Assembly: GCA_013426815.1 (NCBI GenBank)
Contig: JACDZH010000001.1
Location: forward strand, 14,934-78,933
Direction of reading: 5' to 3'
DNA: 64,000 bases
Source of the DNA: Paludibacter sp.
Lineage (GTDB): Bacteria; Bacteroidota; Bacteroidia; Bacteroidales; Paludibacteraceae
Shown: in pieces, positions 2 through 38,269 of the stretch
How the letters are laid out: each line of letters begins with the position of its first letter
Numbering within the stretch: position 1 is the stretch's first letter
Notes under the pieces: model-generated
What the model was told of the DNA's origin: nothing
The model's database searches: none
The model's input: the letters and a program-made list of their open reading frames with translations, nothing else
Position numbers and translations under genes: made by a program

Positions 2-280
2 CTTTGGGAACGTGTTGTGCCAGTTTCGTGGTCTGGAGTTTTACAATACAATGGCACACATGGTGACGGTTTAATAGATGGTGTGGGTAATCCCAATGCT
101 GCCACTTGGCTATATACACCAACTCCATCCTATACTATGCTTAGCTTCCGTGGTGGTGGAATTGCATATGATAATCAATATTTGAGAGTTTCAGATAGAT
201 ATTGGGCATGTGCTTACTCATGTGATTATGGTCGTTCCAATTGGAATGGTGGACGTGGCGTTCGTACAGCACCATTATGA
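2..280 (+). CDS. FGE/SUMF1-fold secreted protein, paralogue 1 (C-terminal part; 5' end lies outside the window)
   Basis: The frame is open from base 2 (LWERVVPVSWSG...GTHGDG...FRGGG...RVSDR...NGGRGVRTAPL*) and matches the C-termini of the three downstream paralogues. Confidence 0.88.
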   Translation, partial: LWERVVPVSWSGVLQYNGTHGDGLIDGVGNPNAATWLYTPTPSYTMLSFRGGGIAYDNQYLRVSDRYWACAYSCDYGRSNWNGGRGVRTAPL

Positions 281-391: not shown

Positions 392-2044
392 ATGAAAAGA
401 AATTTATTAAAAATCGCAGGTGGCTTACAAAGCGGTATTTTTGTAATCGCTACATTCCTTTGCTTACTGTTAAGCACCGGAGTTTATGCCAATAACATTG
501 CCGTAACCAATGTAAGCCTCACCAGCCCGGGTGTGGGATATACAATGGTTCAGTTTGACATAAGTTGGGAAAACTCCTTCAGGGTAAGTCATGGTCCTAG
601 CAACTGGGATGCTGCCTGGGTGTTTGTTAAATACCGCATCAAATCAAGTTATGGTGGTGATGGTACATGGAAACATGCCTGGCTGAACGAGAACGGACAT
701 ACCGCACCAGTAGGCAGTACCCTGGATGTAGGTTTGTTAGATCCTAAAACAGCCTTTAACAATACCACCAACCCCGCTATTGGTGCATTTTTGTATCGGA
801 GTGACGATGGTGTAGGCACTTTTACCAAAACTGGTGTGCAACTTAGATGGAACTATGCCCAAAACTATAAAACCGGTACAACTCCTATTGGAAGCACCGA
901 TGTAATGGATGTACAGGTATATGCCATCGAAATGATATATGTACCCCAAGCTGCTTTCTATTTGGGTTCTGGGGGTAATGAATTGGGAGCTTTTTTCACT
1001 TATCCTAACGTTACTACTCCGTATCAGGTTACCAGCGAAGCTGCCATAACAGTAGGAACTACCCCCGGTAATCTTTATTACGATAACAGTCTTAGTACAG
1101 GTCAAATTACCAGTCAAATTGGTGACAGAGGTACTCCTATCCCTGCTACTTACCCCAAAGGATATACAGCTTTTTATTGTATGAAATACGAAGTAAGCCA
1201 ACAGGGATATGTCGATTTTTTAAATACTTTAACCCGTATACAGCAAGGTGCTCGTGTAGGAACTAATATATCCGTTGGAACAACCACAGTAACCAATCGT
1301 TATGTTATAATTGAACAAAATTATCCACTTTATCGCCATAATATTCGTTGTGATGCCACCATAGATGCCAATAATCCCATTACCTTTTATTGCGATGCCA
1401 ATGGCAATGGTATAGGAGGAGAATTCAACGATGGAAAAGATGTAGCACTGAATTCAAGTCAAGTTGATTTATTCGCTTATCTAGATTGGAGTGGTTTACG
1501 TCCTATGACCGAAATGGAATTTGAAAAAGCCTGTAGAGGCAATCAAACTCCGGTACCTAACGAATTTGCATGGGGTTCAACCAGTATTGTTTCTGCAACA
1601 AATTATATCAATAGTGGAGCTAATAACGAAGTAGCCAGCAATATTGCAGTCGGAGCCAATTGTCATGGTGGTATAAATGCCTGGGCGGGACCTATCCGGG
1701 TTGGTTCATTTGCCAGTGCGGCATCATCGCGCCAGTCAGCAGGTGCCACCTATTATGGCATTACCGATATGAGTGGGAATATGATGGAAACAACAGTCAC
1801 ATCCGGTAACACTACCGGAAGAGCATTTACCGGTACACATGGAAATGGTATTTTAAGTGTTACCGGTAATGGTGATCAAACTACATGGACTACTTCAGTT
1901 AATGGCTGGAGAGGCGGTTGCGGCTATCTTTCTGGATATAATTCTGATATCTTATACGTTTCCTATAGAGGATGGTCAGTATATAATTATACTAGTAATC
2001 GAGACTATATATCCGGTGGTCGTGGAGTAAGGACAATGCCTTAA
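392..2044 (+). CDS. FGE/SUMF1-fold secreted protein, paralogue 2 (550 aa)
   Basis: Sec signal ending GVYA/NNI; SWENSFR..NWDAAWVFVKY N-domain; FYCMKYEVSQ..YVDFLN; YLDWSGLRPMTEMEFEKACRG; DMSGNMME; terminal GGRGVRTMP. Confidence 0.88.
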   Translation: MKRNLLKIAGGLQSGIFVIATFLCLLLSTGVYANNIAVTNVSLTSPGVGYTMVQFDISWENSFRVSHGPSNWDAAWVFVKYRIKSSYGGDGTWKHAWLNENGHTAPVGSTLDVGLLDPKTAFNNTTNPAIGAFLYRSDDGVGTFTKTGVQLRWNYAQNYKTGTTPIGSTDVMDVQVYAIEMIYVPQAAFYLGSGGNELGAFFTYPNVTTPYQVTSEAAITVGTTPGNLYYDNSLSTGQITSQIGDRGTPIPATYPKGYTAFYCMKYEVSQQGYVDFLNTLTRIQQGARVGTNISVGTTTVTNRYVIIEQNYPLYRHNIRCDATIDANNPITFYCDANGNGIGGEFNDGKDVALNSSQVDLFAYLDWSGLRPMTEMEFEKACRGNQTPVPNEFAWGSTSIVSATNYINSGANNEVASNIAVGANCHGGINAWAGPIRVGSFASAASSRQSAGATYYGITDMSGNMMETTVTSGNTTGRAFTGTHGNGILSVTGNGDQTTWTTSVNGWRGGCGYLSGYNSDILYVSYRGWSVYNYTSNRDYISGGRGVRTMP

Positions 2045-2197: not shown

Positions 2198-3829
2198 ATG
2201 AAAAAAAACCATTCAAAACCCGTACACAGCTTGCAAAGTATCGTCTTTGTGTTGGCTGTATTCGTATGCTTTTTATTTAGCACAGGTGCTTACGCCAATA
2301 ACATTGTTGTATCAGGTACAACAGTTTACGGGCACAATACAACCTTTAAAACCACAATGGTGAAGTTTAACTTACAATGGGAAAACTCATTTAGGGTGGA
2401 TCGGGGTCCTGCCAACTGGGATGCCGCATGGGTATTTGTAAAATACCGTGTTCCTACTAACTATGGCGGTGATGGTGTTTGGCGACGTGCCTCAATAACT
2501 AATACAGACTTTGTAGCGCCGGCAGGTAGCACTGTGGCATTGGGTTTGCTTTCACCGGGTATTGCCTACAATGCTACTACAAATCCGGTAATTGGCGGGT
2601 TTGTTCATCGTAGTGTAAATGGAGTTGGTACTATTAACGCCACTGGTGTAGAGTTAAAATGGAACTACGGAAACGATATAAAAACCGGTAGCACACTGGT
2701 TGGTGATAATGATGTAGTAGATATACAGGTGTACGCCATCGAAATGGTGTATATACCCACCGCTAGTTTTTATTTAGGAAGCGGAGGTACCGAAAATAAT
2801 GCTTTTTACAAAGCCCCCAATACTTCCGATCCGTATTTGGTTACAAGTGAAGCACAAATTACTGTAAATGCGAGTTCACCAAATCTTTACTATCCAACAG
2901 GTACTTATGGCGGCGATCAGGCTGGTCCCATCGTGGCTGCATACCCCAAAGGATACAATGGATTTTATTGTATGAAGTACGAAGTGAGTCAGCAAGGATA
3001 TGTCGATTTTCTGAATAGTTTAGTACGTGTACAACAGGCTAACCATGTAGCTACTTCGGTAGGTGTTGGAGCTACATCTGTTACCAATCGTTATGTGATG
3101 TATAATTCTGCTTCGCTTGGTTTTAGAAATGGAATACGCTGCGATGCTGCTATCAATGCCAATGACCCCATTACTTTTTATTGCGACTTAAATGGCAATG
3201 GTACCGGCAGCGAAGCAGCAGATGGTAAAGATATTGCCTGCAATTATTTAAATTGGGCTGATTTAGCTGCGTATCTCGATTGGAGTGGCTTACGCCCTAT
3301 GACTGAGTTGGAATATGAAAAAGCTTGTAGAGGCACTAAGTTGCCGATACCCAACGAATATGCCTGGGGCACGGTAAATCTTACCCAGAACACAGGAATA
3401 AGCAATGCTGGGCTTACCAACGAAGTAAGTGCTAATGGCGGTAACGCAACTTATGCTAATAATGCCGGTGTGCAAGGACCTATGCGTGTAGGTGCTTTGG
3501 CATTAAATCCTTCGTCGCGCGAGCGTTCGGGTGCCAGCTTTTATGGCATTATGGAATTAAGTGGTAATCTGTGGGAACGCGCAGTAACTATAGGTAATAC
3601 CGCCGGCAGGGGTTTTACAGGCACACATGGCGATTGTGTATTGGATGGAAACGGCTATGCAAATGCAGCTACTTGGCCCGTCATTGCAGGAGCGGGAGTC
3701 GGCATTCGCGGTGGAGATTGGTTTAATCTTGCTACTTATATGACGGTTTCTGATGCTTATTTTAGATCCTATACATATAGTCTCCGATACCAAAATTTTG
3801 GTGGTCGTGGTGTTCGGTTGGCTCCTTGA
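2198..3829 (+). CDS. FGE/SUMF1-fold secreted protein, paralogue 3 (543 aa)
   Basis: Same architecture: GAYA/NNI, NWDAAWVFVKY, MKYEVSQ, LRPMTELEYEKACRG, ELSGNLWER, RGGDW...VSD...GGRGVRLAP. Confidence 0.88.
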   Translation: MKKNHSKPVHSLQSIVFVLAVFVCFLFSTGAYANNIVVSGTTVYGHNTTFKTTMVKFNLQWENSFRVDRGPANWDAAWVFVKYRVPTNYGGDGVWRRASITNTDFVAPAGSTVALGLLSPGIAYNATTNPVIGGFVHRSVNGVGTINATGVELKWNYGNDIKTGSTLVGDNDVVDIQVYAIEMVYIPTASFYLGSGGTENNAFYKAPNTSDPYLVTSEAQITVNASSPNLYYPTGTYGGDQAGPIVAAYPKGYNGFYCMKYEVSQQGYVDFLNSLVRVQQANHVATSVGVGATSVTNRYVMYNSASLGFRNGIRCDAAINANDPITFYCDLNGNGTGSEAADGKDIACNYLNWADLAAYLDWSGLRPMTELEYEKACRGTKLPIPNEYAWGTVNLTQNTGISNAGLTNEVSANGGNATYANNAGVQGPMRVGALALNPSSRERSGASFYGIMELSGNLWERAVTIGNTAGRGFTGTHGDCVLDGNGYANAATWPVIAGAGVGIRGGDWFNLATYMTVSDAYFRSYTYSLRYQNFGGRGVRLAP

Positions 3830-3832
3830 TAG

Positions 3833-3953
3833 TAGAATGTAGAATGTAGAATGTAGAATGTAGTTTTTATATTCTCAATTCTCAATTCAAAAATAATTCT
3901 CAATTCTCAATCAAAAATAATTCTCAATTCAAAAATAATTCTCAATTCAAAAA
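3833..3953. repeat. Spacer repeat block: (TAGAATG)x4 followed by four ~18-bp AATTCTCAATTCAAAAAT units
   Basis: Heptamers at 3833-3860; 18-mers at about 3877-3894, 3902-3918, 3919-3936 and 3937-3953. Confidence 0.85.
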
Positions 3954-4023
3954 GGGATTTACAATTCCAAAATAATTCGATTAAATAGAAAAAAATGATA
4001 AATAATTTTTAATAATAAAAAAT

Positions 4024-5586
4024 ATGAAAAGAAACCATTCAAAACCCGCATTCAGCTTGCAAAGTAAAACCTTTGCGCTAGCTGCTTTATTTTGTATTTT
4101 ATTTGGCACCGGCGCTTATGCAAATAATATTGCTATCGCCAACGTAACTCCCATTGGGCAATCTACATCAGGTGCTGCCAATACGCACTATACTATGGTG
4201 CAGTTCGACATTTCGTGGGCTAATTCATTTCGTGTAAGTACAGGTCCTTCTAACTGGGATGCTGCATGGATGTTTGTAAAATATCGAGTTTCGGTAGCCA
4301 ATGGCGGTGATGGACTTTGGAGACATGCCACCCTTAATACTTCTGGTTTCACAGCACCTACCGGTAGCTCCATTACTGCAGCTACCGATGGTACAGGCGC
4401 ATTTATCTATATGTCGGCTGATGGTCGTGCCGATTTTAATAAATTAGGCGTACAACTACGCTGGAACTACGGACTAAATACCAAAGATGGAGTTACAGGT
4501 ATTGGAGATAACGATTTAGTGGATATTCAGGTTTTTGCTATCGAAATGCTTTGGGTACCACAGGGAGCTTTTGCAATTGGTACCGGTGGAACCGAGACCA
4601 GCGCATTTACTCTTACCACCATTAATACCGGTTCTGCTACTTTGACCCCTGCAGGCGTTGGAACACTTGGTGGACAAGCAGGTGGATATCCAACAGGAGC
4701 AACATTACCTACTTCTTCAACTTTTTCTAATGGATTCAATGGATTTTATTGTATGAAGTACGAAGTAAGTCAAAAGGGGTATGTCGATTTTTTGAATACA
4801 TTAACCTATACCCAACAAGCAGGTCGTGTTAGCATTGCACCAAGTTCTTCTGTTGGTACTTATATTAATGGTATAGATAATAAACGAAACAAAATTAAAA
4901 TTGGAACTCCCGGAACAGCTTCTACAGTTCCTGCCGTTTTTACTGCCGAATTTACCGATGTAGCTTGTAACTGGCTAAGTTGGGGCGATTTAGCTGCTTA
5001 TCTCGATTGGAGTGGCTTACGCCCAATGACAGAATTGGAATACGAAAAAGCATGTCGTGGTACTTTAGCACCTGTTGCAAATGAATATATTTGGGGTGGA
5101 ACAACCATTGCTACAGCCGAATATACTATTTCTAGCGGTGGTAGTCCTAGTGAAGTTATCAATGATAATTATAGCACAACCTTGGGAAATGCCGCTTATG
5201 CAACCACTGATTTAGTAACAGGTATTAACGGTCCTGTTCGTGTTGGTATTTTTGCCGGAACTTCTGGAAACAATGGTAGAAGAACTGCAGGTGCAACCTA
5301 CAATGTAATTATGGAAATGGGTGGTAATGTGTCAGAACGTGTTGTGGCATTAGATGCAACAGGTAAAGCTTTTACAGGAGTACATGGCGATGGAAGGCTT
5401 GACGCTAATGGTGATGCAGTAGTTACCAACTGGCCTGATGTAATGACTGCCGCTGGTATTGGTTTCCGTGGCGGTAACTGGCAAAGTTCTGCTGATTTTT
5501 TACGTATTTCTGACCGTGCTGATATAGCAACAGTTGATGCAACTCGTACTGCTTTAACCGGTGGACGTGGTGTTAGAATACCGTAG
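4024..5586 (+). CDS. FGE/SUMF1-fold secreted protein, paralogue 4 (520 aa)
   Basis: GAYA/NNI, NWDAAWMFVKY, MKYEVSQ, LRPMTELEYEKACRG, EMGGNVSER, FRGGNW...ISDR...GGRGVRIP. Confidence 0.88.
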   Translation: MKRNHSKPAFSLQSKTFALAALFCILFGTGAYANNIAIANVTPIGQSTSGAANTHYTMVQFDISWANSFRVSTGPSNWDAAWMFVKYRVSVANGGDGLWRHATLNTSGFTAPTGSSITAATDGTGAFIYMSADGRADFNKLGVQLRWNYGLNTKDGVTGIGDNDLVDIQVFAIEMLWVPQGAFAIGTGGTETSAFTLTTINTGSATLTPAGVGTLGGQAGGYPTGATLPTSSTFSNGFNGFYCMKYEVSQKGYVDFLNTLTYTQQAGRVSIAPSSSVGTYINGIDNKRNKIKIGTPGTASTVPAVFTAEFTDVACNWLSWGDLAAYLDWSGLRPMTELEYEKACRGTLAPVANEYIWGGTTIATAEYTISSGGSPSEVINDNYSTTLGNAAYATTDLVTGINGPVRVGIFAGTSGNNGRRTAGATYNVIMEMGGNVSERVVALDATGKAFTGVHGDGRLDANGDAVVTNWPDVMTAAGIGFRGGNWQSSADFLRISDRADIATVDATRTALTGGRGVRIP

Positions 5587-5600
5587 GTAATTGATAATTT

Positions 5601-5618
5601 TCCCGATAGCTATCGGGA
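5601..5618. repeat. REP-like perfect palindrome TCCCGATAGCTATCGGGA
   Basis: 18-bp palindrome 15 nt after the paralogue 4 stop, flanked by TTGATAA-type heptamers. Confidence 0.8.
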
Positions 5619-6139
5619 TGATAATTGATAATTGAAAAAATTATACTTTTCCAAGTTTTCTTTTGACTTTTTCTTTTAACTTTTCCAAAGTTTCATTTGA
5701 CTTTGGAAAAGTTAGAATAAAAAAAAATTAGAATTGTATAACAATTTTCAATTATCTACACTTTCAAAAGGGTGAATCGGATATTCCGCCCTTCTGGGGT
5801 GCTTCAATTACATAAAAATGCACTTTAGCAAAACCTAGATTATCGGAAGAATAATTTTATGTTATTGTAATAATTGCTTTTTTAAACTTCTCACAATTTA
5901 TATCTGGTTTTGTAATATCATAATCAGGAAATTGAGGGTAATTATGTGATATGCACGGATGATACAACACATTAAATATTAAATGGAATGTATTTGTTTA
6001 TCATCTTCAAATAAACCACTGCCGGTTAGCTGCCTCGAATAAATCGATTCAGATAATAATCAACATTTTATGAGATGGGCAGTTATTTTCATTTCAAAAT
6101 CAAGCTCTTGTAATAGGGAGTAAGCGGTTAAATGTTACC

Positions 6140-6244
6140 AACTTCCGTGGTAACTATTGGAACAATAATCCAACGAAAATGCAAGTTTCCGACCAAAAGA
6201 ACCCGGCGAACTGCCACTATAATTGTATGTTCAATTATGGTGGT
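6140..6244 (+). other. Non-genic copy of the FGE paralogue C-terminal segment; decayed DGR template-repeat-like sequence
   Basis: Translates as NFRGNYWNNNPTKMQVSDQKNPANCHYNCMFNYGG. The RG-x12-SD-x15-GG spacing equals that of paralogues 3 and 4. 9 of 35 codons are AAC/AAT. No upstream FGE body in this frame (TGA at 6071-6073). Confidence 0.5.
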
Positions 6245-6336
6245 GTGAGTCGTGTGCTCTATGTTCATTGCTTTCGTTTGTACACTGATCTTTTGACCAT
6301 TGACCAGCACCAATTGGCAATGCAAATTTAACAATT

Positions 6337-9300
6337 ATGAAAAGACTATCTTTATATTTTATCTTGTTGGCAGCCCTCCCCATAGGTTTGTTGGCTCAAA
6401 ACGAACGGTACTATGGAGGTGCAGGACGTGGAGATAAAGTGCTAAAGATAAATAATATAGTGTTAAGTGATATAGCTTCACCAGCCGACTATATTTATTT
6501 GGGAGGTATTGGTAGAGGTGATATTGCATTAACCGAAGTTGATAATTATCTGAAATCTGTTGATGGTGTTTATGTGGGTGGAAATGGACGTGGCAATAGC
6601 CTTGAGCTTTCAAGTATTAACTTTCTTAGCGAAGGTGAAGTAAGTGTATTGGACTTAATTTGTCAAGGGGGTTTTGGAAGCGGTGATATAGCCGTAACCG
6701 AAACAAGTTATGCTTTGTATGGTTTTCAAACTGTATACAAAGGAGGTATTGGACGTGGTGATAAGAATGCTGTAATAAATGATGCCACTGCCGATGGTGG
6801 GAATGTGTATGATTTAATTTATGTAGGTGGTATTGGTCGTGGTGATGTGAACATCGCAGATGCGGGTCTATCGTTGAATGGTGTAGATGCAGCTTATGCA
6901 GGTGGTAATGGTCGTGGCGACATATTAGATACGCAATACAGTTTAGCAATTAATGATCTTGGAATTTTCGAATCGGTTTATTTAGGTGGTATTGGGCGAG
7001 GTGATATAGTGCGTACGGAAAACAATTTCTTGTTGGGCGGTTATGGTGCGCGTTTTGTAGGCGGTAATGGTCGTGGTGATATCTCCATTGTAAGTTCAGA
7101 ATTAAGCATAGGAAGTAGATCTATTTACGATATTTTATATTTTGGAGGAGTAGGACGTGGAGATATTTCAAAAACAGAGAATGCCTATTCACTTGGTGGT
7201 ATAGAAGTGGTGTACGTGGGTGGCAACGGACGTGGTGATAATGTTAATACCAAATACATCAATTCCATCAACGAAGGTAATCTTACTGACATCATCTACT
7301 CGGGTGGTGGGGGACGTGGTGATATATCGGTAATTGAAACCAATTATGCATTGTCCGGTGTTGGTGCTGTTTACTTTGGCGGCAATGGTCGCGGTGATAT
7401 CTTATTAGGATTATACGATTCAACCGTTAGTGGAAATAACGATGGAATATTTATGGGCGGTGTTGGTCGTGGAGATATATCCTTAACAGAAAGCAATTTC
7501 TCATTGGGAGGTCTCGACGGACTGTTCGTGGGTGGAAATGGTCGTGGAGATAAACTTCAGGGCTTATATTTTATTTCAATAAGCGGCTTTAATATATATG
7601 CCGGCGGTGTGGGTCGTGGTGATATTTCTCGTACCGAAACCAATTATCTATTAAGTGGTTTAGGAGGTCGTTTTGCCGGTGGTATTGGTCGTGGAGATAT
7701 TATAATTAAAATACCTAATACTGGCATTGGTGGTGGTTCTATTATTGATATGCTCTACAGTGGTGGAATTGGACGTGGAGATGTTTCAATCAGAGAAACC
7801 GAATATTATTTATCCGGATTAGATTTTGTTTATTATGGCGGTAATGGACGTGGTGATATTATTGAAGCAAAATACACTAACTTTATCAATGAAGTTGATA
7901 TTACCGATGTCATCTACTCGGGTGGAATAGGCCGTGGTGATAATTCTAATATAGAAACCAGTTATCCATTATCGGGAGTAGGCGGCGTTTACTTTGGTGG
8001 AATAGGGCGTGGAGATAATTTATTGAGTATTTATGATGTTTCTACCGGTGGTGGAATTGATATTATTTACACTGGTGGTATAGGTCGTGGAGATGTATCT
8101 CAGACAGAAAATAATTATACATTGGGTGGTTTCGATGGACTATTTGTGGGCGGTAATGGACGTGGAGATAGGCTCGAAACTTTGTACAGCGCTCAGGTCG
8201 CAGTTATTAATTTATATGCCGGTGGCTTGGGTCGTGGCGATATATCGCATACCGAAACAAATAATTTATTAAGTGGTTTTGGTGGTCGTTACTTTGGAGG
8301 TATTGGTCGCGGTGATATTAGCATAACTTCGTTTGGCAGTTCAAATCTCGAATTATTGTATGCCGGTGGTGTGGGTCGCGGTGATATGGGTACAGCAGAT
8401 TCTAATTTATTACTTGCCGGATATGATGCCGTTTATGTGGGAGGTAATGGTCGTGGTGATAAATTGGATGTTTTAGCTGAACTTCCACTTGGCAATAGTA
8501 CAATTTACACCGGTGGTGTTGGACGTGGTGATATTTCGGTTACCGAAACTAGTTTCTCATTGTCAGGAGTTGGCGGAGTTTACTTTGGTGGCATTGGTCG
8601 TGGTGATATTTTATTTAGCATTTTCGATAAATTGGTTACTGGTGATGATATAATTTCAAACATTTATTACGGTGGTATTGGTCGTGGTGATTTTGGAATT
8701 GTTGAAACTAGTTCATCACTGTCAGGACCGGATGCACTTTATGTGGGTGGCAATGGACGTGGTGATATGTCTCAATTATTGGCAACTATTGGTACAGTTA
8801 ATATTTATACTGGCGGTGTAGGTCGCGGTGATTTTAACCGTACAGAAATTGGCTTTTTACTAAATGGTGTTGGTGCCCGTTATTTAGGTGGTGTCGGTCG
8901 TGGTGATATCAGTGTAAAGGTTATACAAGTAATAGATCCAGATTTGATTTACACAGGTGGTATAGGTCGTGGTGATGTTAGCTTAGTTAATATCAATTTG
9001 TTATTGGGCGGTCCAGATGGACTTTTTGTGGGAGGCAATGGTCGAGGTGATAACAGGCATCAAGCCAATTCTATTCCAATAAATGAAATTCCACTCTTTG
9101 ATATTATCTACAATGGTGGAGATGGTCGTGGTGATTATAACTATTTAAGTCATGATTCCTATCTTGACGGTACTTATCGTGGTGGAGATCGTTACCGAGG
9201 CGGTTCTGGTCGTGGAGATATCATCTCTAATACAACTCATTCCTTGCTCGATGGTACTACCAACTTTAATGCTATCATTTATGGAGGTGGTATTGGTCGG

Positions 9301-12021
9301 GGTGATATTTCAATACTTATTGATAGTTATCCATTAGCAGGTTCTGATAATCTTTATAATGGTGGTGATGGACGTGGTGACATTGAAAATCAATTGGACA
9401 ATGTATATATCAATGAAACTGGTGTACCCATAGATTTATTATATGTTGGAGGTATGGGACGTGGTGATGCATCACACACTGAATTTGATTTTACATTAAG
9501 AGGTTTGGGTGTTTACTTTGGTGGCGATGGACGGGGTGATGTATTATATGGTATTGAAGATAAATTAACGAACGGAGAAGATATTTACTCAGTAGTTTAT
9601 GTGGGTGGTTTAGGACGTGGTGATATAGCCACTGGAGGAAACGATTATCCACTTAGTGGTACTGATGGAGTTTATGTAGGGGGTTCCGGTCGTGGTGATA
9701 AGTTGGATTATGTAAAAACTCTAGGTATTAATGCGGCTATTTGGTTGGGAACACTTAATAACGATTGGGCGAATGCAGGTAACTGGGGTGGAAACATATT
9801 GCCAGCTGAGGATGGTGATATAATATTTGGTTACAATCCTATAAATGATTTATACATGGATGCCGATCATTTGCTACGTAGAATTACCAATGCCAGTGCT
9901 ACACGTCGATTGGTAACCAATGGTCATATATTGAAAGTATCGAATGACTTTGTATTCACTAACGGAGCTCAAATAGATGCATCCGCAATTGGTTCTGCCA
10001 TTGAGATGGATGGTATTGTTACCCAAATAATCCCTGCCGGTTTGTTTGTTTCAAATAACGTCTATAACTTAATCATAAATAATGCGCCGAATGTAAGGTT
10101 GAGCGGTACAATCAATATTATGAATGAATTGACAACTCTTGCAGGTAAGTTAGATGTAACTACTAATTTAGCGACAGTTAATTTTGTAGGTACTTCTGCT
10201 CAAACCATTGGAGATGTGTTCTTGAATAACAGGGTTTACAACTTAACTATAGATAATCCTGCAGGTGTAACCATCAATAATTCTGCCAATACTACCTTGG
10301 TTGGAACCTTGACATTGAAAAATACGTTAACAGTATCAGGTGCAGGACGTTTAGATGCAGATTCGATTACATTAAATCCAGCAGTAATATATTCGGGTGT
10401 GACTGCTCAATCCATTGATGATGATCTTTATCTTCTCAACAGAGCGCATAATCTAATCATCAACAATACAGCAGGTGTTACCCTCAATACTGACTTTGCA
10501 GTAGATAATGTATTGACTATCAATCCAGGTAAAAAAATGACAATACCTACCGAAAAGTATATGTATGTTGATAAAACATTCACAAACAATGCAGGAATAT
10601 CCGGTTTGTTAATCAAAGCCAGTGTAGATGGGTCTGTTGCAAATGGTTCGTTGGTATTCAATAATGTTAGAAATAATCCGGTGTCAGCCACTGTAGAAAT
10701 GTACGATAAAGCATCTGGTCCGGCTGGAAATACCTTGGCAAGTAAGTTTAAATGGCAATACTTTGGTATACCGTTCAGAAGCTTAACACATGGCGGTATA
10801 TTCAATAGAGGGGATGGAAATGGTTCGTATGTACGTCGTTGGAATCATAGTGATTCGAAATGGTATTTACAGAAAGGTGATTCAATACTGACATCGTTCA
10901 CAGGTTATGAAATTGCACAACCAAATCCTAAAGTAATTACCTTTACAGGCGTGCTGGAAAATGGTAACTTTACTAAAACATTGGATTATAACGGTGTTGG
11001 AACAAATAAAGGACAGTATTTATTTGCTAATCCTTATACAGCAGCCATTGATATTACTAAACTTGAATTTACTGATGGAGTTGAAAAGTCGGTTTATTTA
11101 TTCAATACTGGCTCTACGGCTGACTGGACTGCCAATGGTGGTGTGCTTACACCAGGCAATAATCCTGGACAATATGTAGTGGCACCAAAACAAACTGCAG
11201 GTACTGGAGGAATTCCATCTCAAATACCATCAATGCAAGGCTTCTTGGTGAACGATATCGAGGATTTGGACCGTGATAGTGTTCATATATTTAGTATACC
11301 TTATTCAGCTGTGGTAACTAAAAACACAGCACCACTAAGAACTAGATCAAATGATAATGTAGCCAAATCTGATAAAGTATATAGTATTATTGATGTGAAG
11401 GGTAGTCGTTTTGGTGACCGTATGTGGTTGTTCACCGATTCTACTTGCAACCATGACTTTAACAATGGATGGGACGGACGGAAAGTATTCGGTACTGTTC
11501 TTACACCTCAGCTATATGCAGTTGAATCGGATGGTGATTATCAAATTAATGCTGTGAATGATATTAACAACACAGATTTGGCATTCCAGGCTGGTGAAGA
11601 CACAAAATATAAGCTCACATTCTCACACACCAATACTGAAACGCATTATGCAGCTATCTATTTGGTTGATATGTTAGAAAATGTTACTACTGATATTACA
11701 TTATCTGGTTCGGAATATGCATTCGAAGCTGCTTCAACTGAAAAGCCGGTGAAACGATTTAAAATTATTACCGTTTCGGCAACTGCAACTAGTACTAGTC
11801 TGACTAAGGTATTCAGTGCTGACAAAACAATTTTTGTACAGAATTTCAGTCATGTAATTGGTGATTTGTATCTATACGATATTGCAGGAAGATTTATTCA
11901 AAAATCACCATTTGGAGGAAGTGGATTAACAGCAATACCAGTGAATTTACCTGTAGGACCGTATGTAGTAAAAGCTGTTACAAAATTAGATGTAACAACT
12001 TCAAGTTTGATAATTAAATAA
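6337..12021 (+). CDS. Giant T9SS-secreted protein with 43 GGxGRGD-type repeats (1894 aa); putative adhesin or scaffold
   Basis: Signal peptide; repeat region 6409-9699; WLGTLNNDWANAGNW module; repeated VYNLxIxN beta-helix-like units; WQYFGIPF domain; T9SS-type tail (LYLYDIAGR...LPVGPYVVK...LIIK). Confidence 0.9.
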   Translation: MKRLSLYFILLAALPIGLLAQNERYYGGAGRGDKVLKINNIVLSDIASPADYIYLGGIGRGDIALTEVDNYLKSVDGVYVGGNGRGNSLELSSINFLSEGEVSVLDLICQGGFGSGDIAVTETSYALYGFQTVYKGGIGRGDKNAVINDATADGGNVYDLIYVGGIGRGDVNIADAGLSLNGVDAAYAGGNGRGDILDTQYSLAINDLGIFESVYLGGIGRGDIVRTENNFLLGGYGARFVGGNGRGDISIVSSELSIGSRSIYDILYFGGVGRGDISKTENAYSLGGIEVVYVGGNGRGDNVNTKYINSINEGNLTDIIYSGGGGRGDISVIETNYALSGVGAVYFGGNGRGDILLGLYDSTVSGNNDGIFMGGVGRGDISLTESNFSLGGLDGLFVGGNGRGDKLQGLYFISISGFNIYAGGVGRGDISRTETNYLLSGLGGRFAGGIGRGDIIIKIPNTGIGGGSIIDMLYSGGIGRGDVSIRETEYYLSGLDFVYYGGNGRGDIIEAKYTNFINEVDITDVIYSGGIGRGDNSNIETSYPLSGVGGVYFGGIGRGDNLLSIYDVSTGGGIDIIYTGGIGRGDVSQTENNYTLGGFDGLFVGGNGRGDRLETLYSAQVAVINLYAGGLGRGDISHTETNNLLSGFGGRYFGGIGRGDISITSFGSSNLELLYAGGVGRGDMGTADSNLLLAGYDAVYVGGNGRGDKLDVLAELPLGNSTIYTGGVGRGDISVTETSFSLSGVGGVYFGGIGRGDILFSIFDKLVTGDDIISNIYYGGIGRGDFGIVETSSSLSGPDALYVGGNGRGDMSQLLATIGTVNIYTGGVGRGDFNRTEIGFLLNGVGARYLGGVGRGDISVKVIQVIDPDLIYTGGIGRGDVSLVNINLLLGGPDGLFVGGNGRGDNRHQANSIPINEIPLFDIIYNGGDGRGDYNYLSHDSYLDGTYRGGDRYRGGSGRGDIISNTTHSLLDGTTNFNAIIYGGGIGRGDISILIDSYPLAGSDNLYNGGDGRGDIENQLDNVYINETGVPIDLLYVGGMGRGDASHTEFDFTLRGLGVYFGGDGRGDVLYGIEDKLTNGEDIYSVVYVGGLGRGDIATGGNDYPLSGTDGVYVGGSGRGDKLDYVKTLGINAAIWLGTLNNDWANAGNWGGNILPAEDGDIIFGYNPINDLYMDADHLLRRITNASATRRLVTNGHILKVSNDFVFTNGAQIDASAIGSAIEMDGIVTQIIPAGLFVSNNVYNLIINNAPNVRLSGTINIMNELTTLAGKLDVTTNLATVNFVGTSAQTIGDVFLNNRVYNLTIDNPAGVTINNSANTTLVGTLTLKNTLTVSGAGRLDADSITLNPAVIYSGVTAQSIDDDLYLLNRAHNLIINNTAGVTLNTDFAVDNVLTINPGKKMTIPTEKYMYVDKTFTNNAGISGLLIKASVDGSVANGSLVFNNVRNNPVSATVEMYDKASGPAGNTLASKFKWQYFGIPFRSLTHGGIFNRGDGNGSYVRRWNHSDSKWYLQKGDSILTSFTGYEIAQPNPKVITFTGVLENGNFTKTLDYNGVGTNKGQYLFANPYTAAIDITKLEFTDGVEKSVYLFNTGSTADWTANGGVLTPGNNPGQYVVAPKQTAGTGGIPSQIPSMQGFLVNDIEDLDRDSVHIFSIPYSAVVTKNTAPLRTRSNDNVAKSDKVYSIIDVKGSRFGDRMWLFTDSTCNHDFNNGWDGRKVFGTVLTPQLYAVESDGDYQINAVNDINNTDLAFQAGEDTKYKLTFSHTNTETHYAAIYLVDMLENVTTDITLSGSEYAFEAASTEKPVKRFKIITVSATATSTSLTKVFSADKTIFVQNFSHVIGDLYLYDIAGRFIQKSPFGGSGLTAIPVNLPVGPYVVKAVTKLDVTTSSLIIK
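6409..9699 (+). repeat. Intragenic repeat array: 41 GRGD plus 2 variants (GRGN, GSGD), units of 22-30 aa
   Basis: Counted from the translation; mostly 25-aa units alternate with variable 22-30-aa units. Confidence 0.92.
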
Positions 12022-16625: not shown

Positions 16626-19600
16626 ATGTCAAAACTTCTCATAAACGAATACTATCAAAATCTCGATAGAACTTTGCAATATGGTAAAAGTAGTAACGAA
16701 CAGAGTATCAGAAATCATTTCTGGCATTTACTGAACGATTATGCCCGTAAACTGAATTATGAAGTGATACCAGAAGTATCTGTTATGGGCACTAGAGGTA
16801 AAAAAGTGTACCCCGATGGAACAGTGAAAAATCTTTGGGGACTTGATATTGGTTTATGGGAAAGTAAGGACGAAAAGGATGACATTGAAGCCGAAATTGA
16901 TGCCAAAATTGTAAAAGGGTATCCACTTACAAACATACTTTTTGAAGACAGCAACCTTGCTGTTCTATTTCAGCGTGGCATAGAGGTTATGCGTGTGAAA
17001 GTGCGCGATGTCGATAGTTTCGACAAAATTCTGACCATGTTTATTGGTTTTAAAAGCGAATCTGTTTATCAGTTTGAAGAGGCGATAGAAAAATTTAAAG
17101 CAGATATTCCTATAATTGTAGAAACGCTGCGAACCAAAATTATGGAGGATAGGGCTAATAATGCCCAATTTATTGCAGAACAGAACACGTTTTTTGAATT
17201 GTGTAAAGTGGAGATAAACCCCAGCATCACATTGGATGATATTCGCGAAATGATGATACAACACATTCTGACAAGCGATATTTTCAATAAAATTTTCGAT
17301 GACCCCGATTTTCATCATCATAATACCATTGCTTCGGAATTAGAAAAGCTCACGGCTACACTTTTTACATACCCCGAACGACGTAACCTGCTCAACAGCA
17401 TTGAACATTATTACCAAGCCATCAATTCCACTGCTGCCGGAATTACCGACCACCACGAGAAACAAAAGTTCCTAAAAGTATTATACCAAAACTTTTACAA
17501 GGTATATAATCCAAAAGCTGCCGACCGATTGGGAGTTATTTATACACCAAACGAAATTGTATCATTTATGGTAAAAAGCACCAACTACCTGCTTCACAAG
17601 TATTTTGGGCGTACTTTGGCTGACCATAACGTGGAAATTCTCGACCCAGCCACTGGTACCGGAACGTTTATTTGCGAAATAATTGAAAACGCCATTCCCA
17701 AACAAAACCTCGATTACAAATTCAAAAACGAACTACATGCCAACGAAGTAGCCATATTGCCCTATTATATTGCTAATCTGAATATTGAGTACACTTTTAA
17801 GCAAAAAATGCAATATTACGCCGAGTTCCCTAACCTATGTTTTGTAGATACCATCGACAATACTGGAGGATTGGTATTTGAAGGAAAGCAACACGATTTG
17901 TTTGGATTGAGTAGTGAAAATTCAGAACGCATTAAACGTCAAAACCGCAAGAAAATATCCGTTATCATTGGCAATCCGCCTTATAACGCCAACCAACTGA
18001 ACGAAAACGAGAACAACAAAAACCGCGAATATCCTTTTATCGATAAACGCATTAAAGATACTTTCATAAAGCACAGCACGGCTCAAAAAACAAAAGTCTA
18101 TGATATGTATGCCCGATTTTACCGCTGGGCAATGGACAGGATAGAGCAAAACGGCGTATTGGCAATGATTACCAACCGAAGTTTTATTGACAGCCGTACC
18201 TTCGATGGTTTCCGAAAATGTATTCAGTCAGAATTTTCTCATTGTTATATCATTGATACACTAAGCGATGTGCGTGCAAATCCTAAAATTGCCGGAACCA
18301 CACACAATGTTTTTGGCATTCAAACTGGAGTTGCCATCATGTTTTTGATAAAAAAAGATAAACAAGCCGGAAATTGTATGATTGAATATGTAAGTATGGA
18401 CGATTACTGGCGAAAAGAAGAAAAACTTGACTGGCTGAAAAACAATCAGATAGAAAATATTCACTTCCAAACCATACACCCCGACAAAAATAACAATTGG
18501 ATTAATTTGAGTGAAGAAAATGATTGGGAAAATTTGATTCCAGTGGCTGATAAAGATGTAAAACTGGGTAGAAGTAAAAAAGCTATTTTTGAATTGTTTT
18601 TTACTGGTGTACCTACAAATAGGGATGGATGGGTTTACGACTTAAATAAAAATAACCTTATAAATAAAATGAATTTTTTCTCAGAGACATTTAATAAAAA
18701 TTTGGGGAAAAATGAATTTGATAATCGATTGAAATGGAGTCGAGATTTAAAAAACGAACTTCTCAGAGGAAATAAGTCTTCATTTAATTCAAAATATATT
18801 GTTCAAGCAGTTTATCGTCCTTTTATTAAACAGTTTCAATATACAGAAAAAATTCTTAATGATGTTTTAACACAAAATCATTATGACGTTTTTGGAAGTA
18901 ATTTAAACGAGGTGAATAAAATAATTTGTATTCCTGGAGTAGGGATTGATAGACCATATCATTGTATATCAGTAAAATATTTACCACATTTACAAATTAC
19001 ACCTAATGGTCAATGTTTACCAGCAAAACGCTATAATAAAGCAAATCAATATGTTGACAATATAACCGACTGGGGTTTAGAGCAATTTTTTACTCATTAC
19101 GATGACGAAACCATCACGAAAGAAGATATTTTTCATTACACCTACGCTGTTTTGCATAATCCGGTTTACCGCGAAAAATACAAATTGAACCTTAAACGAG
19201 AGTTTCCACGTTTGCCTTTTTATAACGATTTCAAAAAATGGGCTGCATGGGGCAAATCTTTGATGGAACTTCATATTAATTACGAAACCGCCAAACCATA
19301 CAATTTGGAAGTGCTGACATTTGAAACTAAAACCGAAGCAAAAGCAGAAGTGAAACGCCAAAAGGAAATGTTTATAGTGGTAAGCGAACCTGATGAATTG
19401 TTCATAAGAATTCCAAAAATTAAACCACGTTTAAAAGCCATTAAAAATATTGGGATTATCGAAATTGATGATTTGACATTTCTAAAAGGAGTTCCATCAA
19501 TTGCTTGGGAATATAAATTAGGTAACCGTTCAGCCATCGAATGGATTTTGGATCAATATAAAGAAAAGAAACCAACCGATCCCACTATCGCCGATCAGTT

Positions 19601-19724
19601 TAATACCTACCGTTTTGCCGATTACAAAGACAAGGTTATTGAATTGATTCAGCGTGTATGTACTGTCAGTGTGGAAACCATGAAAATTACCGAAGAAATG
19701 AAATTAGAGTTCAAGATTCAATAA
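16626..19724 (+). CDS. Single-chain restriction-modification enzyme: N6-adenine methyltransferase with an N-terminal PD-(D/E)xK-like region and a type ISP-like C-terminal specificity domain; no helicase
   Basis: YPDG...WESKD (nuclease-like), GVIYTP, LDPATGTGTF (motif I), IIGNPPY (motif IV), YRPF, EFPRLPF, YKLGNRSAIEWILDQY; no DEAD/helicase motifs in 1032 aa. Confidence 0.85.
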   Translation: MSKLLINEYYQNLDRTLQYGKSSNEQSIRNHFWHLLNDYARKLNYEVIPEVSVMGTRGKKVYPDGTVKNLWGLDIGLWESKDEKDDIEAEIDAKIVKGYPLTNILFEDSNLAVLFQRGIEVMRVKVRDVDSFDKILTMFIGFKSESVYQFEEAIEKFKADIPIIVETLRTKIMEDRANNAQFIAEQNTFFELCKVEINPSITLDDIREMMIQHILTSDIFNKIFDDPDFHHHNTIASELEKLTATLFTYPERRNLLNSIEHYYQAINSTAAGITDHHEKQKFLKVLYQNFYKVYNPKAADRLGVIYTPNEIVSFMVKSTNYLLHKYFGRTLADHNVEILDPATGTGTFICEIIENAIPKQNLDYKFKNELHANEVAILPYYIANLNIEYTFKQKMQYYAEFPNLCFVDTIDNTGGLVFEGKQHDLFGLSSENSERIKRQNRKKISVIIGNPPYNANQLNENENNKNREYPFIDKRIKDTFIKHSTAQKTKVYDMYARFYRWAMDRIEQNGVLAMITNRSFIDSRTFDGFRKCIQSEFSHCYIIDTLSDVRANPKIAGTTHNVFGIQTGVAIMFLIKKDKQAGNCMIEYVSMDDYWRKEEKLDWLKNNQIENIHFQTIHPDKNNNWINLSEENDWENLIPVADKDVKLGRSKKAIFELFFTGVPTNRDGWVYDLNKNNLINKMNFFSETFNKNLGKNEFDNRLKWSRDLKNELLRGNKSSFNSKYIVQAVYRPFIKQFQYTEKILNDVLTQNHYDVFGSNLNEVNKIICIPGVGIDRPYHCISVKYLPHLQITPNGQCLPAKRYNKANQYVDNITDWGLEQFFTHYDDETITKEDIFHYTYAVLHNPVYREKYKLNLKREFPRLPFYNDFKKWAAWGKSLMELHINYETAKPYNLEVLTFETKTEAKAEVKRQKEMFIVVSEPDELFIRIPKIKPRLKAIKNIGIIEIDDLTFLKGVPSIAWEYKLGNRSAIEWILDQYKEKKPTDPTIADQFNTYRFADYKDKVIELIQRVCTVSVETMKITEEMKLEFKIQ

Positions 19725-22690: not shown

Positions 22691-23881
22691 ATGATAAAAA
22701 AAATGCTTGTATTAGGAACAGTTATTTTGAGCAGCTTTTCTGCAATAGCTCAGGATTCTACCGCAGTTGACAGTTTCAAATTTACAGTACTGAAGCAAAA
22801 TAAAATTTCAACGGTTAAAAATCAAGCGAGTTCAGGTACATGTTGGAGTTTTTCTACTTTGGGATTTTTAGAGGCAGAATTGTTGCGCATGGGTAAACCG
22901 GAAGTCGATTTGTCCGAAATGTTTGTCGTGCATCATTCGTATACCGACAAAGCCGATAAATACGTTCGCATGAATGGCACCATCAATTTTGCATGTGGTG
23001 GTTCATTTTCGGATGTTATTTATGTGCTTAAGAATTACGGAATTGTGCCCGAATCTGCCATGAGCGGCCTCAATTATGGTGAAGACTAGCATCGTCACGG
23101 CGAATTGGATGCACTTATCGCTGCATATACCAAAGTAATAGTTTCAAATCCAAACAAAAAACTTTCTACTGCATGGAAAGCCGGTTTTGAAGGGGTTCTA
23201 GATGCTTATTTAGGCTCTTGTCCTAAAGAATTTACCATGGATGGAAAGAAATATTCACCAACCACTTATGAACAATCTTTGGGATTAAATCTCGACGATT
23301 ATGTTTCATTGACATCATTTACGCATCATCCTTTTTATATGAAATTTATTATCGAAATACCCGATAACTGGCGTTGGGAAGAATCTTATAATTTGCCACT
23401 CGATGAGTTTAAAAGTATAATAGATAATGCGATAGATAAAGGATATTGTATAGCTTGGGGTTCGGATGTGAGCGAAAAAGGGTTTTCAAAAAAAGGCATT
23501 GCCGTAAATCCCGAAATCAAAGTTGAAAACATGCAAGGAACAAATCAGGCACGTTGGTTAGGCATTTCCGATAAAGACAGGGAAGAAAAAATATACAAGA
23601 ATTTGAAACCTCAACCCGAAGTGAAAGTTACACAGGAAATTCGTCAGGCGGCATTCGATAACTATCAAACTACCGACGACCACGGAATGGTAATATTTGG
23701 TACTGCAAAAGATCAAAACGGAACAAAGTATTATTTGGTAAAAAACTCTTGGGGAACCGATTCAAAATACAAAGGAATTTGGTACGCCAGTGAATCATTC
23801 GTTTTACACAAAACCATCAATATTCTTGTACATAAAAATGCAATTCCAAAAGAAATTCAAAAGAAATTAGGATACAAATAA
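22691..23881 (+). pseudogene. C1 family cysteine aminopeptidase (aminopeptidase C/bleomycin-hydrolase-like) split by a single in-frame TAG at 23087-23089
   Basis: The two ORFs are in the same frame and read NYGED*HRHGELDAL. Catalytic elements are intact: QASSGTCWSF, DDHGM, KNSWG. Confidence 0.8.
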
Positions 23882-36454: not shown

Positions 36455-38269
36455 CTACTTTTCAACCTTTTGTAATAAAATTGATTTCAATTCACAGATT
36501 GGACTAACCTTATTGGTGAGAGCCTGAATTGATACTCGTTGGTTACCTTTTTTAAGGTATAGTTTGCCAAGTGACTGGTTTTTGAATGTTTGCGTATACC
36601 AAACAGTATTTTCTCTACGGGGACGCATCAGTGGCTCAGGATTATAAGAGTTCATTAAATTACTTTCTGTAACTGACTTTCCTGCTTTCACTTGTAATTT
36701 AGTACCAACCGCTGCATCCGAGCAAGTATAATCAATAGAAACATTGTAATAACCCGATTTAACCACATTGATGTTCCACCAGATTAAATCATCTTTTGAT
36801 TTCCAGCCTGTTAACCAGTCATAGGCAAAGCCATATTTGTTATACCAACTTATACCTTTTGTGAAAAAAGCCTCTGGTGCAGGCAACTCAACGTCAGGAT
36901 GCCCCTTGTATCCTACAGGAATGAGTGGTCGGGAAATTGGTTTCTTGGTTACATCAACAAACCATTCATCATACGCATTACTTAGCTTACTCAAAGTATC
37001 GGGAAAGGTTTTAGCTAAATCTTTGGACTCAGACCGGTCATTTTGCATGTCATAGAGCTGCCAACCTTTTCCCTCGTTTACAGCACGCCATCTTTGCGTT
37101 CTCACTGTTCCACCATAAGGCTCAATATTGGTGATTAAGGAATCTTTGTATTCAACCATTTTTTTCCAACCTGCCGAACGGGCAAATATCAGTCTATCAG
37201 GCCAATTAGGTTCAGATCCATCAAATAACGGGACTAAACTACGACCGTCCAAAGGTAGCGTTTTCAGTTTTTTAATACCACATAGTTCGGCAATAGTGGG
37301 AAGCAAATCAACATGAGCTCCTATACGGTCAACCGTTTTCGGCTTTATTTTTCCAGGCCAACGGATAAAAAAGGGAACACGCATTCCGCCTTCATGTACG
37401 CTTCCTTTCATACCACGCATTCCCGCGTTATATCGACTGCCAACATCTCCTTCCGCACCATTATCAGTTAAAAAAATCACTATGGTATTTTCTGAAAGTG
37501 AGAGCTCATCGAGTTTTGCTAATAGACGACCAATATTTTCATCCACATTTTCAACCATACCATATATTGAAGCATTTCTGCCATCCAGCCCCATTGCAGT
37601 GTACTTGTCGAAGTAACGATCCGGCACTTGAAATGGTGAATGAGGTGCATTAAAAGGAACATAACAGAAAAATGGTTCTGATTGGTGCTTCTCAATGAAT
37701 GAAAGTGTGGAATCGGTCAGTATATCTGTTATAAAGCCTTTGGTTTGAACCTGTTTGCCATTATGATTCAATTGAGGATCGAAATAAAAGTTGGCATGCC
37801 CCTGTGGTATGCCAAAAAATTCATCAAAGCCTTGTCCGTTCGGAGTGCTGGGAAAATGTTCGCCTATATGCCATTTTCCAAAACAACCGGTTGCATAGTC
37901 TGCCTTTTTGAGAACTTCTGCAATTGTTACTTCTTCGGGACGAGCAAACTCGAGCCCCCGAGTTACCGACAACACACCTGTTCTTAGTGGGTATCGCCCT
38001 GTCAGCAAACTTGCACGACTAAAGCTACTATAGGGACAGACCATAAATCGATCAAATCTTAGAGATTGAGAAGCTAGTTTATCAAGTACAGGAGTGCTGA
38101 CTTTTTCATTTCCATGACATCTGAGGTCACCATAACCCTGATCGTCAGTCAAAATAAGAAGAATATTAGGTCGCTTTTCCTGTTGTTCGCGAGATAATGC
38201 CGGAAAAGAATTCTGCACTATAATACTTGAAGAAAACAGGAGTTTTAATACTGTAGATGGGTGGTTCAT
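36455..38269 (-). CDS. Arylsulfatase (S1 family) with a non-canonical signature S-S-F-S-R
   Basis: RPNILLILTDDQGYGD, SRASLLTGRYP, GKWHIG, NAPHSP, FLTDNG, KGSVHEGGMRVP, VDLLPT, DGRSL. Confidence 0.9.
   Translation of the reverse strand: MNHPSTVLKLLFSSSIIVQNSFPALSREQQEKRPNILLILTDDQGYGDLRCHGNEKVSTPVLDKLASQSLRFDRFMVCPYSSFSRASLLTGRYPLRTGVLSVTRGLEFARPEEVTIAEVLKKADYATGCFGKWHIGEHFPSTPNGQGFDEFFGIPQGHANFYFDPQLNHNGKQVQTKGFITDILTDSTLSFIEKHQSEPFFCYVPFNAPHSPFQVPDRYFDKYTAMGLDGRNASIYGMVENVDENIGRLLAKLDELSLSENTIVIFLTDNGAEGDVGSRYNAGMRGMKGSVHEGGMRVPFFIRWPGKIKPKTVDRIGAHVDLLPTIAELCGIKKLKTLPLDGRSLVPLFDGSEPNWPDRLIFARSAGWKKMVEYKDSLITNIEPYGGTVRTQRWRAVNEGKGWQLYDMQNDRSESKDLAKTFPDTLSKLSNAYDEWFVDVTKKPISRPLIPVGYKGHPDVELPAPEAFFTKGISWYNKYGFAYDWLTGWKSKDDLIWWNINVVKSGYYNVSIDYTCSDAAVGTKLQVKAGKSVTESNLMNSYNPEPLMRPRRENTVWYTQTFKNQSLGKLYLKKGNQRVSIQALTNKVSPICELKSILLQKVEK

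Follow-up and report, generated by a model that had tools for sequence, protein, structure and literature searches.

In a 64,000-nucleotide stretch of a Paludibacter sp. genome (GenBank assembly GCA_013426815.1, contig JACDZH010000001.1, positions 14,934 to 78,933; hereafter the window), a short segment rich in Asn codons lies between an array of paralogues related to the formylglycine-generating enzyme (FGE) and a large gene for a repeat protein. We find it most probable that this segment is the template repeat (TR) of a former diversity-generating retroelement (DGR) with the order target, avd, reverse transcriptase (RT) and TR (architecture B2), that it is stranded without RT or avd, and that mutagenic homing from it is extinct. 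In an intact DGR, RT and Avd copy the TR RNA into cDNA and misread its adenines. The cDNA replaces a variable repeat, or variable region (VR), at the 3' end of the gene for an FGE-like surface protein of C-type-lectin fold, and thereby rewrites the codons templated by AAC and AAT. We hold with high confidence that the segment originated as the TR module of a DGR of type B2, one directed at this FGE family, whose avd and RT were deleted. The case is built on homology, a stub of the RT gene, the failure to find RT, Avd or VR in the data at hand, an RT-less state common to related lineages and the pattern of substitution.

Likeness to intact RT-spacer-TR modules

An earlier note, made from the letters of the window alone, had read positions 6140-6244 (plus strand) as an orphan copy of an FGE variable C-terminus and possibly a decayed DGR template. 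Its description of the segment is accurate. The translation from 6140 is NFRGNYWNNNPTKMQVSDQKNPANCHYNCMFNYGG; 9 of the 35 codons are AAC or AAT (the chance of at least nine is 9e-5 given the base composition of the gap), and adenines make up 36 of the 105 bases. The RG-x12-SD-x15-GG spacing is the same as in the paralogues at 2198-3829 and 4024-5586, and AACTTCCGTGGT differs by one base from AGCTTCCGTGGT of the first paralogue. No FGE gene body lies upstream: tblastn of all the paralogues against 5587-6336 returned, besides the segment, only noise at E > 1. Compared with the paralogues in the window alone, the segment is not significant (no blastn match, tblastn E 2.6-6.3); its significance stems from homology to verified TRs elsewhere.

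Those TRs came from two scans. Scanning genomes for relatives of the paralogues brought up 79 loci from metagenome-assembled genomes of Bacteroidota and Ignavibacteriota, and comparison of each locus with itself for repeats mismatched at adenines yielded one clean case, L039 (CAINEZ010000472.1, uncultured Bacteroidetes), in which FGE target, bAvd, RT and TR follow in this order and 23 of 23 TR/VR mismatches fall at TR adenines. With the L039 RT as query, metagenomes yielded 80 loci, 39 of them with adenine-specific TR/VR pairs and, in nearly all, the TR after the RT; the closest DGR clade (L082-L091) targets full-length members of the same FGE family. The order target-avd-RT-TR corresponds to architecture B2 of Wu et al. 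(2018; PMC5758913).

The last RT codons, ~155-nt spacer and TR of these intact DGRs of related bacteria have a collinear counterpart in window 5955-6262 (Table 1). In an nhmmer comparison over 1.27 Mb of related loci with about 100 coding C-termini, the best non-self match of the segment was the L039 TR (E 1.1e-13), and the best coding C-terminus reached E 0.004. By blastn, window 6055-6244 aligns with L039 13218-13405 at 69.5% over 190 nt (E 3e-26). By nhmmer, window 5950-6270 matches the L082 module over its full length (E 1.5e-17, query positions 8-308 of 321), beginning at the end of the RT match in L082, and also matches L083-L086. The similarity is not confined to FGE coding homology, reaching ~185 nt into the non-coding 5' flank, and at its far end a blastn high-scoring pair joins 5955-6001 to the RT stop-codon region of L039 (13118-13163, E 0.005; alignments A4 and A5). 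The suspicion of an orphan DGR template repeat is thus borne out by the homology of the segment, its 5' flank and the last RT codons to intact RT-spacer-TR modules.

The adenine test, by which TRs can be distinguished from VRs and pseudogenes, points the same way. The L039 TR agrees with its own VR at 36% of template adenines and 100% of non-A positions. The candidate agrees with the L039 TR at 78% of adenines (28/36) and 72% of non-A positions, and with the L039 VR at 28% (10/36) and 72%. Set against the VRs of paralogues 2198-3829 and 4024-5586, it reaches only 25-33% at adenines and 48-51% at non-A positions (48% for 4024-5586), compared with 31-44% and 58-59% for the foreign L039 TR. The segment carries the TR adenines which VRs have randomised. 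By this test it is a TR by descent and not the template of its neighbours, and the earlier caveat that it is no clean template for the paralogues in the window was well placed. The remnant encodes C-H-Y-N-C at 6212-6226, and the variable region of the first paralogue has C-A-Y-S-C at 205-219 (CxYxC); the two motifs stand at unequal distances from the SD and GG anchors and their codons are incompatible with templating, so that the likeness is probably a coincidence.

Missing parts, erosion and RT-less relatives

The genome covered here amounts to ~72 kb, comprising the window, 2.9 kb upstream and ~5 kb past the window end. No RT was found in six frames of the window, as the earlier note had stated, or in the 2.9 kb upstream on contig L001, either by tblastn with the L039 RT or with a hidden Markov model (HMM) of 80 RT homologues (best E 0.5), and the ~5 kb past the window end holds glycosidase genes only, with no RT. 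Searches of the window and the 2.9 kb upstream for Avd, by tblastn with the L039 Avd and with an HMM of 49 Avd homologues, were negative (best E 3.1). No RT-like frame precedes 5955, where only the 21-nt stub is left, and 5587-5954 has no similarity to RT, Avd or FGE in any frame. A cognate VR was likewise missing. The adenine-masked TR pattern had no second match in the window at up to three mismatches; in run X1, to which the window itself belongs (word depth 140), the TR contig was the only one on 6000-6400 at a likeness of at least 80%; and among the top 120 family proteins not one is consistent with the residues that the TR would fix, the best agreeing at 17 of 24. Neither the window, the own-run contigs nor these proteins hold a TR/VR pair with mismatches nearly all at TR adenines. 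The TR pattern with A masked to N was unmatched in metagenome_contigs and viral_contigs, the TR itself included, so the source is not in these collections.

The TR itself has moved away from what working TRs keep. It deviates at 14 of the 52 columns invariant in seven working TRs, while working TRs deviate at 0-8. Differences between working TRs lie at third codon positions in 48-74% of cases, with 6-13 changes at positions 1-2; those between the window and working TRs do so in 37-49%, and 17-23 of them lie at positions 1-2. The scaffold Arg codon CGN, found in all TRs of the close clade, is TGT in the window, and SDR has become SDQ, RGG has become RGN and GGRGVR has become GGVSRV. In working relatives, GGxCGTGGxGTxCG...GCGCCTTAGCCGGGGTT is common to the 3' ends of TR and VR. 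The terminal CCTTAGCCGGGGTT is absent from the window TR, and no 3' end of the initiation-of-mutagenic-homing type was found there: the window reads GGTGGTGTGAGTCGTGTGCTCTATG, homology is then lost, and the last ~25-30 nt of working TRs are without counterpart.

The spacer may be eroded as well. In intact DGRs it holds a long-range helix (GCUGCC..UAUCC with GGGUA-GGCAGU) by which a domain of ~135 nt is closed directly upstream of the TR. Six of its 11 pairs are changed on both sides, and slid controls drop to 32-55% paired. This helix is a candidate for the RNA element recognised by RT-Avd. By our reading of alignment A6, 5 of the 11 pairs are in register in the window.

Orthologues were found for each paralogue, those of paralogue 4024-5586 being P0009 (89%) and P0012 (85%). 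On the P0012 contig the gap to the next gene is only 789 nt and so contains neither avd nor RT. Run X2, a freshwater sediment metagenome that holds the contig of P0009, provided a 1691-nt contig covering window 5815-6698 with the same RT-less gap and the same stub. The earlier note had proposed a search of orthologous loci for an intact TR-RT; both of these are RT-less, X2 having the stub and TR. The RT-less gap being common to the X2 contig and the P0012 locus, the deletion would predate these lineages. Polarised with working DGRs as outgroup, 15 of 21 differences are derived in the window copy and 6 in the X2 relative. Changes derived in the window include the loss of A at 6155 and 6228, the loss of an Asn codon at 6178 and a G-to-A change at 6137, and those at 6029 and 6119 break helix pairs that the X2 relative has kept, given our placement of these positions in the helix. 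The TR of the X2 relative has 11 Asn codons, as reconstructed from the listed differences. The scaffold departures (the Cys codons and GGxSRV) are common to both copies and therefore old.

In the paralogue next to the remnant, the VR is not hypervariable among orthologues. Only 5-6 of the 35 residues in the VR of 4024-5586 differ from its orthologues (85-89% identical), which indicates that it is not being hypermutated. The first two paralogues (17-2044) are 76-82% identical overall to their orthologues P0005, P0006 and P0007, with a variable C-terminus that is far more different and has indels, which suggests ordinary diversifying evolution of C-termini without a DGR.

History of the locus and rival readings

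We infer that a deletion would have taken avd and the RT gene except its last 21 nt, possibly together with the true target. What it would have spared, namely the RT stub with the ~155-nt spacer and TR behind it, has the last FGE paralogue on one side and the large repeat-protein gene on the other. Judging from the common gap structure, the deletion would be older than the split from at least two related lineages. The four neighbouring paralogues would now have fixed, germline-encoded C-terminal variety, and the window copy would be eroding at positions kept in every working relative. Homing from this TR is likely to be extinct, since RT, Avd, a VR partner and 3' homology are missing and the window copy has an excess of derived changes. 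The earlier note had offered two origins for the segment. One, a template for a paralogue upstream of the window, does not hold: the array starts with the 17-280 paralogue, a DsbD_2 gene comes before it, and the VR of that paralogue is mismatched. Of the other, a fossil of the DGR that diversified this array, the fossil DGR stands and the diversification is not supported, the four C-termini differing by indels and at non-A positions. At most, paralogue 4024-5586 served as a target in the past, or else the real one was lost together with avd and RT. This paralogue, which is the closest of the four to the L039 DGR target (50%, 439 bits; 43-46% to its neighbours), may be the former target. The TR and the VR of this paralogue are no longer alike, so that either a long time has gone by or the deletion of avd and RT took the true target as well.

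Several points weigh against this account of an inactive relic. Between the window and X2, the spacer 5' block and TR together differ at 31 of 285 sites, against 80 of 252 fourfold sites (Fisher 2e-9), which makes them ~3x slower. Neutral evolution does not describe the module: the blocks that working DGRs conserve are the very ones that diverge slowly and almost without indels, which points to residual purifying selection since RT loss. The differences in the TR core fall at third codon positions in 7 of 11 cases, as between working TRs (P 0.04). An interrupted alternative spacer duplex is still possible in the window (-15.0 kcal/mol). Contigs also prove presence better than absence, the genome seen is ~72 kb, and a VR less than 80% like the TR, or unassembled, would escape the search. 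The word "decayed" in the earlier note thus fits the eroded features of a working TR but not the rate at which the module has changed between two RT-less lineages. It is conceivable, if not our favoured reading, that selection kept an RT-less, Avd-less TR module after enzyme loss, either as a satellite TR served in trans or as a recruited regulatory leader or small RNA. The most economical reading of the residual constraint would be that the module serves the gene downstream as a transcribed promoter or leader.

If that reading were correct, the spacer and TR would be an exapted relic, kept for a role in cis as promoter and/or long 5' leader of the 1894-aa gene, or as a stand-alone small RNA. 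We consider this somewhat unlikely. It has the same origin as the stranded DGR template and differs on present function only. The gene adjoins the element, its start being 92 nt further downstream along the same strand, and conservation reaches its ATG at 6337 (6 differences in 61 nt). The slow rate and the single 1-nt insertion in 285 nt are also what this explanation calls for, the more so as neighbouring blocks (5720-5815, 5864-5954, 6096-6131 and the spacer between paralogues 2 and 3) are unalignable, indel-rich or 36% divergent. Against this, a scan for consensus promoters and terminators, which covered sigma-70-type promoters, stayed at chance level, the runs that hold the sequence are DNA only, the third-position bias in the TR core is unexpected for a leader or promoter, and the window copy has 15 derived changes to the relative's 6.

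That codon-position bias is among the points in favour of a satellite TR that is still transcribed and used in trans by an RT-Avd elsewhere, for example from a second DGR of the same clade, its target being a remote FGE-type gene whose VR has an unusual scaffold with two fixed cysteines (CxxxC). The RT-less pair mirrors the conservation of working DGRs, in that the spacer 5' block and TR are kept and the linker is free; adenines and 9-11 Asn codons are retained; and scaffold departures common to both lineages are old and stable. Moreover, ~10% of DGR-bearing genomes have several DGRs, and co-transcription of TR and RT is not required (PMC5758913). Even so, we judge such a satellite improbable. 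In neither metagenome did a VR-like contig align to the TR at a likeness of at least 80%, though the aligner caught a 36-nt partial match elsewhere, and nothing among the top 120 family proteins fits the TR-constrained pattern. The family-invariant GGRGVR and the 3' homology for homing are missing, two derived substitutions in the window break pairs of the covariation-supported helix, and there is no RT within ~72 kb.

The chance that the segment is instead the C-terminal fragment of a fifth FGE paralogue, a pseudogene remnant with accidental Asn richness, appears close to negligible. The motifs FRG, W, VSD and GG do stand at the family spacing, and the segment does lie at the end of a tandem array; but tblastn of five family proteins against the gap gave noise only and no FGE body upstream, the nearest relatives are non-coding TRs and none of the ~100 coding C-termini, and its adenines are those common to TRs and not to VRs. 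The homology that runs 185 nt upstream into the DGR spacer and RT stop region, found in no FGE gene, refutes the pseudogene reading. A small open reading frame (ORF; 6179-6331, 50 aa, with another at 6128-6334 on the minus strand) was also rejected: by our tally of the differences listed against the X2 relative, the frame shows ~4 silent and 9 replacement changes, with a premature stop at 6311.

Genomic setting and known systems

Table 1. Features of the window and of intact DGRs, and differences between the window and the X2 relative
Feature	Sequence	Position	Strand	Remarks
Tail of first FGE-sulfatase-like paralogue	Window	17-280	+	Not templated by remnant
Second FGE-like paralogue, complete	Window	392-2044	+	Hypervariable C-terminus; not templated by remnant
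Third FGE-like paralogue, complete	Window	2198-3829	+	Hypervariable C-terminus; not templated by remnant
Fourth FGE-sulfatase-like paralogue, adjoins remnant	Window	4024-5586	+	PF03781; VR-equivalent ~5461-5565; possible former DGR target, not current target
Gap after array, 750 nt	Window	5587-6336		Between paralogue 4024-5586 and 1894-aa gene
AT-rich filler	Window	5587-5954	.	Position expected for avd and RT; holds dispersed palindrome 5601-5618 and hairpin repeat 5668-5723
RT gene stub	Window	5955-5975	+	Last six codons and stop, ACG GAT GAT ACA ACA CAT TAA (TDDTTH-stop); aligns to L039 RT end TEDATLK-stop
RT-to-TR spacer of former DGR RNA, ~155 nt	Window	5976-6132	+	Collinear with L039 and L082-L086 spacers; conserved 5' block to ~6095; variable linker 6096-6131; helix strands ~6016-6034 and ~6116-6129
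TR remnant	Window	6133-6262	+	Core 6140-6244; 3' part 6245-6262 degenerate
Stretch between TR remnant and next gene	Window	6263-6336	+	Homology to intact DGRs lost here (alignment A5); may be promoter or leader of 1894-aa gene
1894-aa repeat protein gene	Window	6337-12021	+	Dozens of GG(I/N/V)GRGD-type repeats (GGxGRGD-type); no Pfam match
FGE homologue (target)	L039	9980-11464		VR at 11330-11472
bAvd gene	L039			PF22296; between target and RT
Reverse transcriptase	L039	12077-13141		RVT_1 (PF00078)
Template repeat	L039	13295-13437
Spacer with conserved helix	Intact DGRs	L039 13137-13300; L082 4227-4400; L083 2667-2833; L085 3329-3495; L087 1853-2066; L088 1114-1295
Upstream block	Window vs X2	5720-5815		Unalignable
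Upstream block	Window vs X2	5864-5954		14/91 differences plus six indels
Spacer 5' block	Window vs X2	5955-6095		15/141 differences; one 1-nt insertion (at 6085)
Linker	Window vs X2	6096-6131		13/36 differences
TR	Window vs X2	6132-6275		16/144 differences; no indels
Stretch to ATG	Window vs X2	6276-6336		6/61 differences
Fourfold sites of adjacent gene	Window vs X2			80/252 (31.7%)
Third positions of downstream gene	Window vs X2			14/68

The four paralogues directly upstream of the remnant belong to Pfam PF03781. That the array has four members follows from Logan contig L001, of the same organism, on which the first paralogue is complete and preceded by the DsbD_2 gene. They are 52-57% identical overall, with ~35 hypervariable residues from RGG to GGRGVR that include indels. 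The spacers between them (2047-2071, 3833-3862, 3877-3966) carry short tandem repeats, namely AATAATG ~4x, TAGAATG ~4x and an 18-nt unit, AATTCTCAATTCAAAAAT, ~4x, and the spacer between paralogues 2 and 3 is unalignable to the X2 relative save for the last ~57 nt before the ATG. A palindrome, TCCCGATAGCTATCGGGA, with similar flanks follows three of the FGE paralogues (329-346, 2082-2099, 5601-5618) and also stands at L001 241-258. As a DGR target-recognition hairpin it was rejected, because the same element with its flanks occurs upstream of DsbD_2 (L001 229-311), which makes it a dispersed intergenic repeat. The hairpin at 5668-5723 has 24-nt arms, 92% complementary, and is multi-copy (depth 130-180 in run X2 against ~8 in the flanks, with many contigs ending there); it looks like a repeat of the miniature inverted-repeat transposable element (MITE) or repetitive extragenic palindromic (REP) kind. 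An Rfam scan of 5500-6450 found no known RNA family, only sub-threshold miRNA-like matches on this hairpin.

A protein search with the first 470 residues of the 1894-aa protein found no relatives at E 1e-30. L039 has a smaller protein with GGNDDGFS repeats and a type IX secretion system (T9SS) tail ~0.9 kb downstream of its DGR. The rest of the window holds ordinary chromosomal genes for restriction-modification, peptidases, glycoside hydrolases, a sulfatase with a bona fide FGE, and T9SS cargo. The sulfatase lies at 36455-38269, and a compact 296-aa protein at 49518-50408 matches FGE-sulfatase at E 9e-44; the latter is probably the real formylglycine-generating enzyme, the lectin-like array proteins matching only at E 1e-8 to 1e-10. 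A Type ISP restriction-modification enzyme is encoded at 16626-19724, with coupler, Eco57I-type methylase and ISP C-terminal specificity domains. Adjacent ORFs at 22691-23089 and 23105-23881 each match part of a papain-like C1 peptidase and are probably one gene broken by a frameshift or stop. The 131-aa ORF at 56809-57204 covers only positions 71-173 of the 200-position DDE_Tnp_1 transposase profile and looks like a truncated insertion-sequence remnant.

The locus illustrates how a DGR can end, with avd and RT deleted and the RT stop region, spacer and TR left beside hard-wired variant paralogues. DGR surveys anchored on the RT are blind to such relics, so DGR loss is probably under-counted, and a TR relic can be mistaken for a small ORF. 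In two RT-less lineages the relic has changed at about a third of the fourfold-site rate, which raises the question of whether TR RNAs are served in trans or reused after enzyme loss. A further outcome of the comparison is a DGR clade of freshwater Bacteroidota with a covariation-supported helix in the spacer beside the TR.

Among known systems, the B2 DGRs of L039 and L082-L091 are the closest in kind. Their RT 3' end, ~155-nt spacer and TR are collinear with window 5955-6262, their target is an FGE-sulfatase-like surface protein with the VR at its C-terminus, and their TRs have the same frame, with Asn codons at variable positions. The window differs in having no avd, no RT beyond the 21-nt stub and no VR partner, in its altered TR 3' end and in deviating at 14 of 52 invariant columns. 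The DGR of Bordetella phage BPP-1, mtd-avd-TR-brt, works by mutagenic retrohoming: sequence from a non-coding TR, altered specifically at adenines, enters a VR of C-type-lectin fold, with 3' homology guiding integration. By analogy, the same mechanism is assumed for the ancestor of the window element; BPP-1 has its TR before the RT and another target family, and its element is complete. The TvpA DGR of Treponema denticola, likened here by its description, has one TR thought to serve several related, scattered targets (PMC5758913); it has an RT, an accessory of architecture C and a TR that matches its VRs, whereas the window has no enzyme and no matching VR. B2 architectures and FGE-type C-type-lectin targets such as TvpA were already known, and none of architectures A-E lacks an RT (PMC5758913). 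A text search of that paper and of Roux et al. (2021; PMC8144416) found no mention of RT-less or orphan TRs. The Paludibacter element is thus a degenerate member of a known system, whose unusual trait is that it has been conserved without its enzyme.

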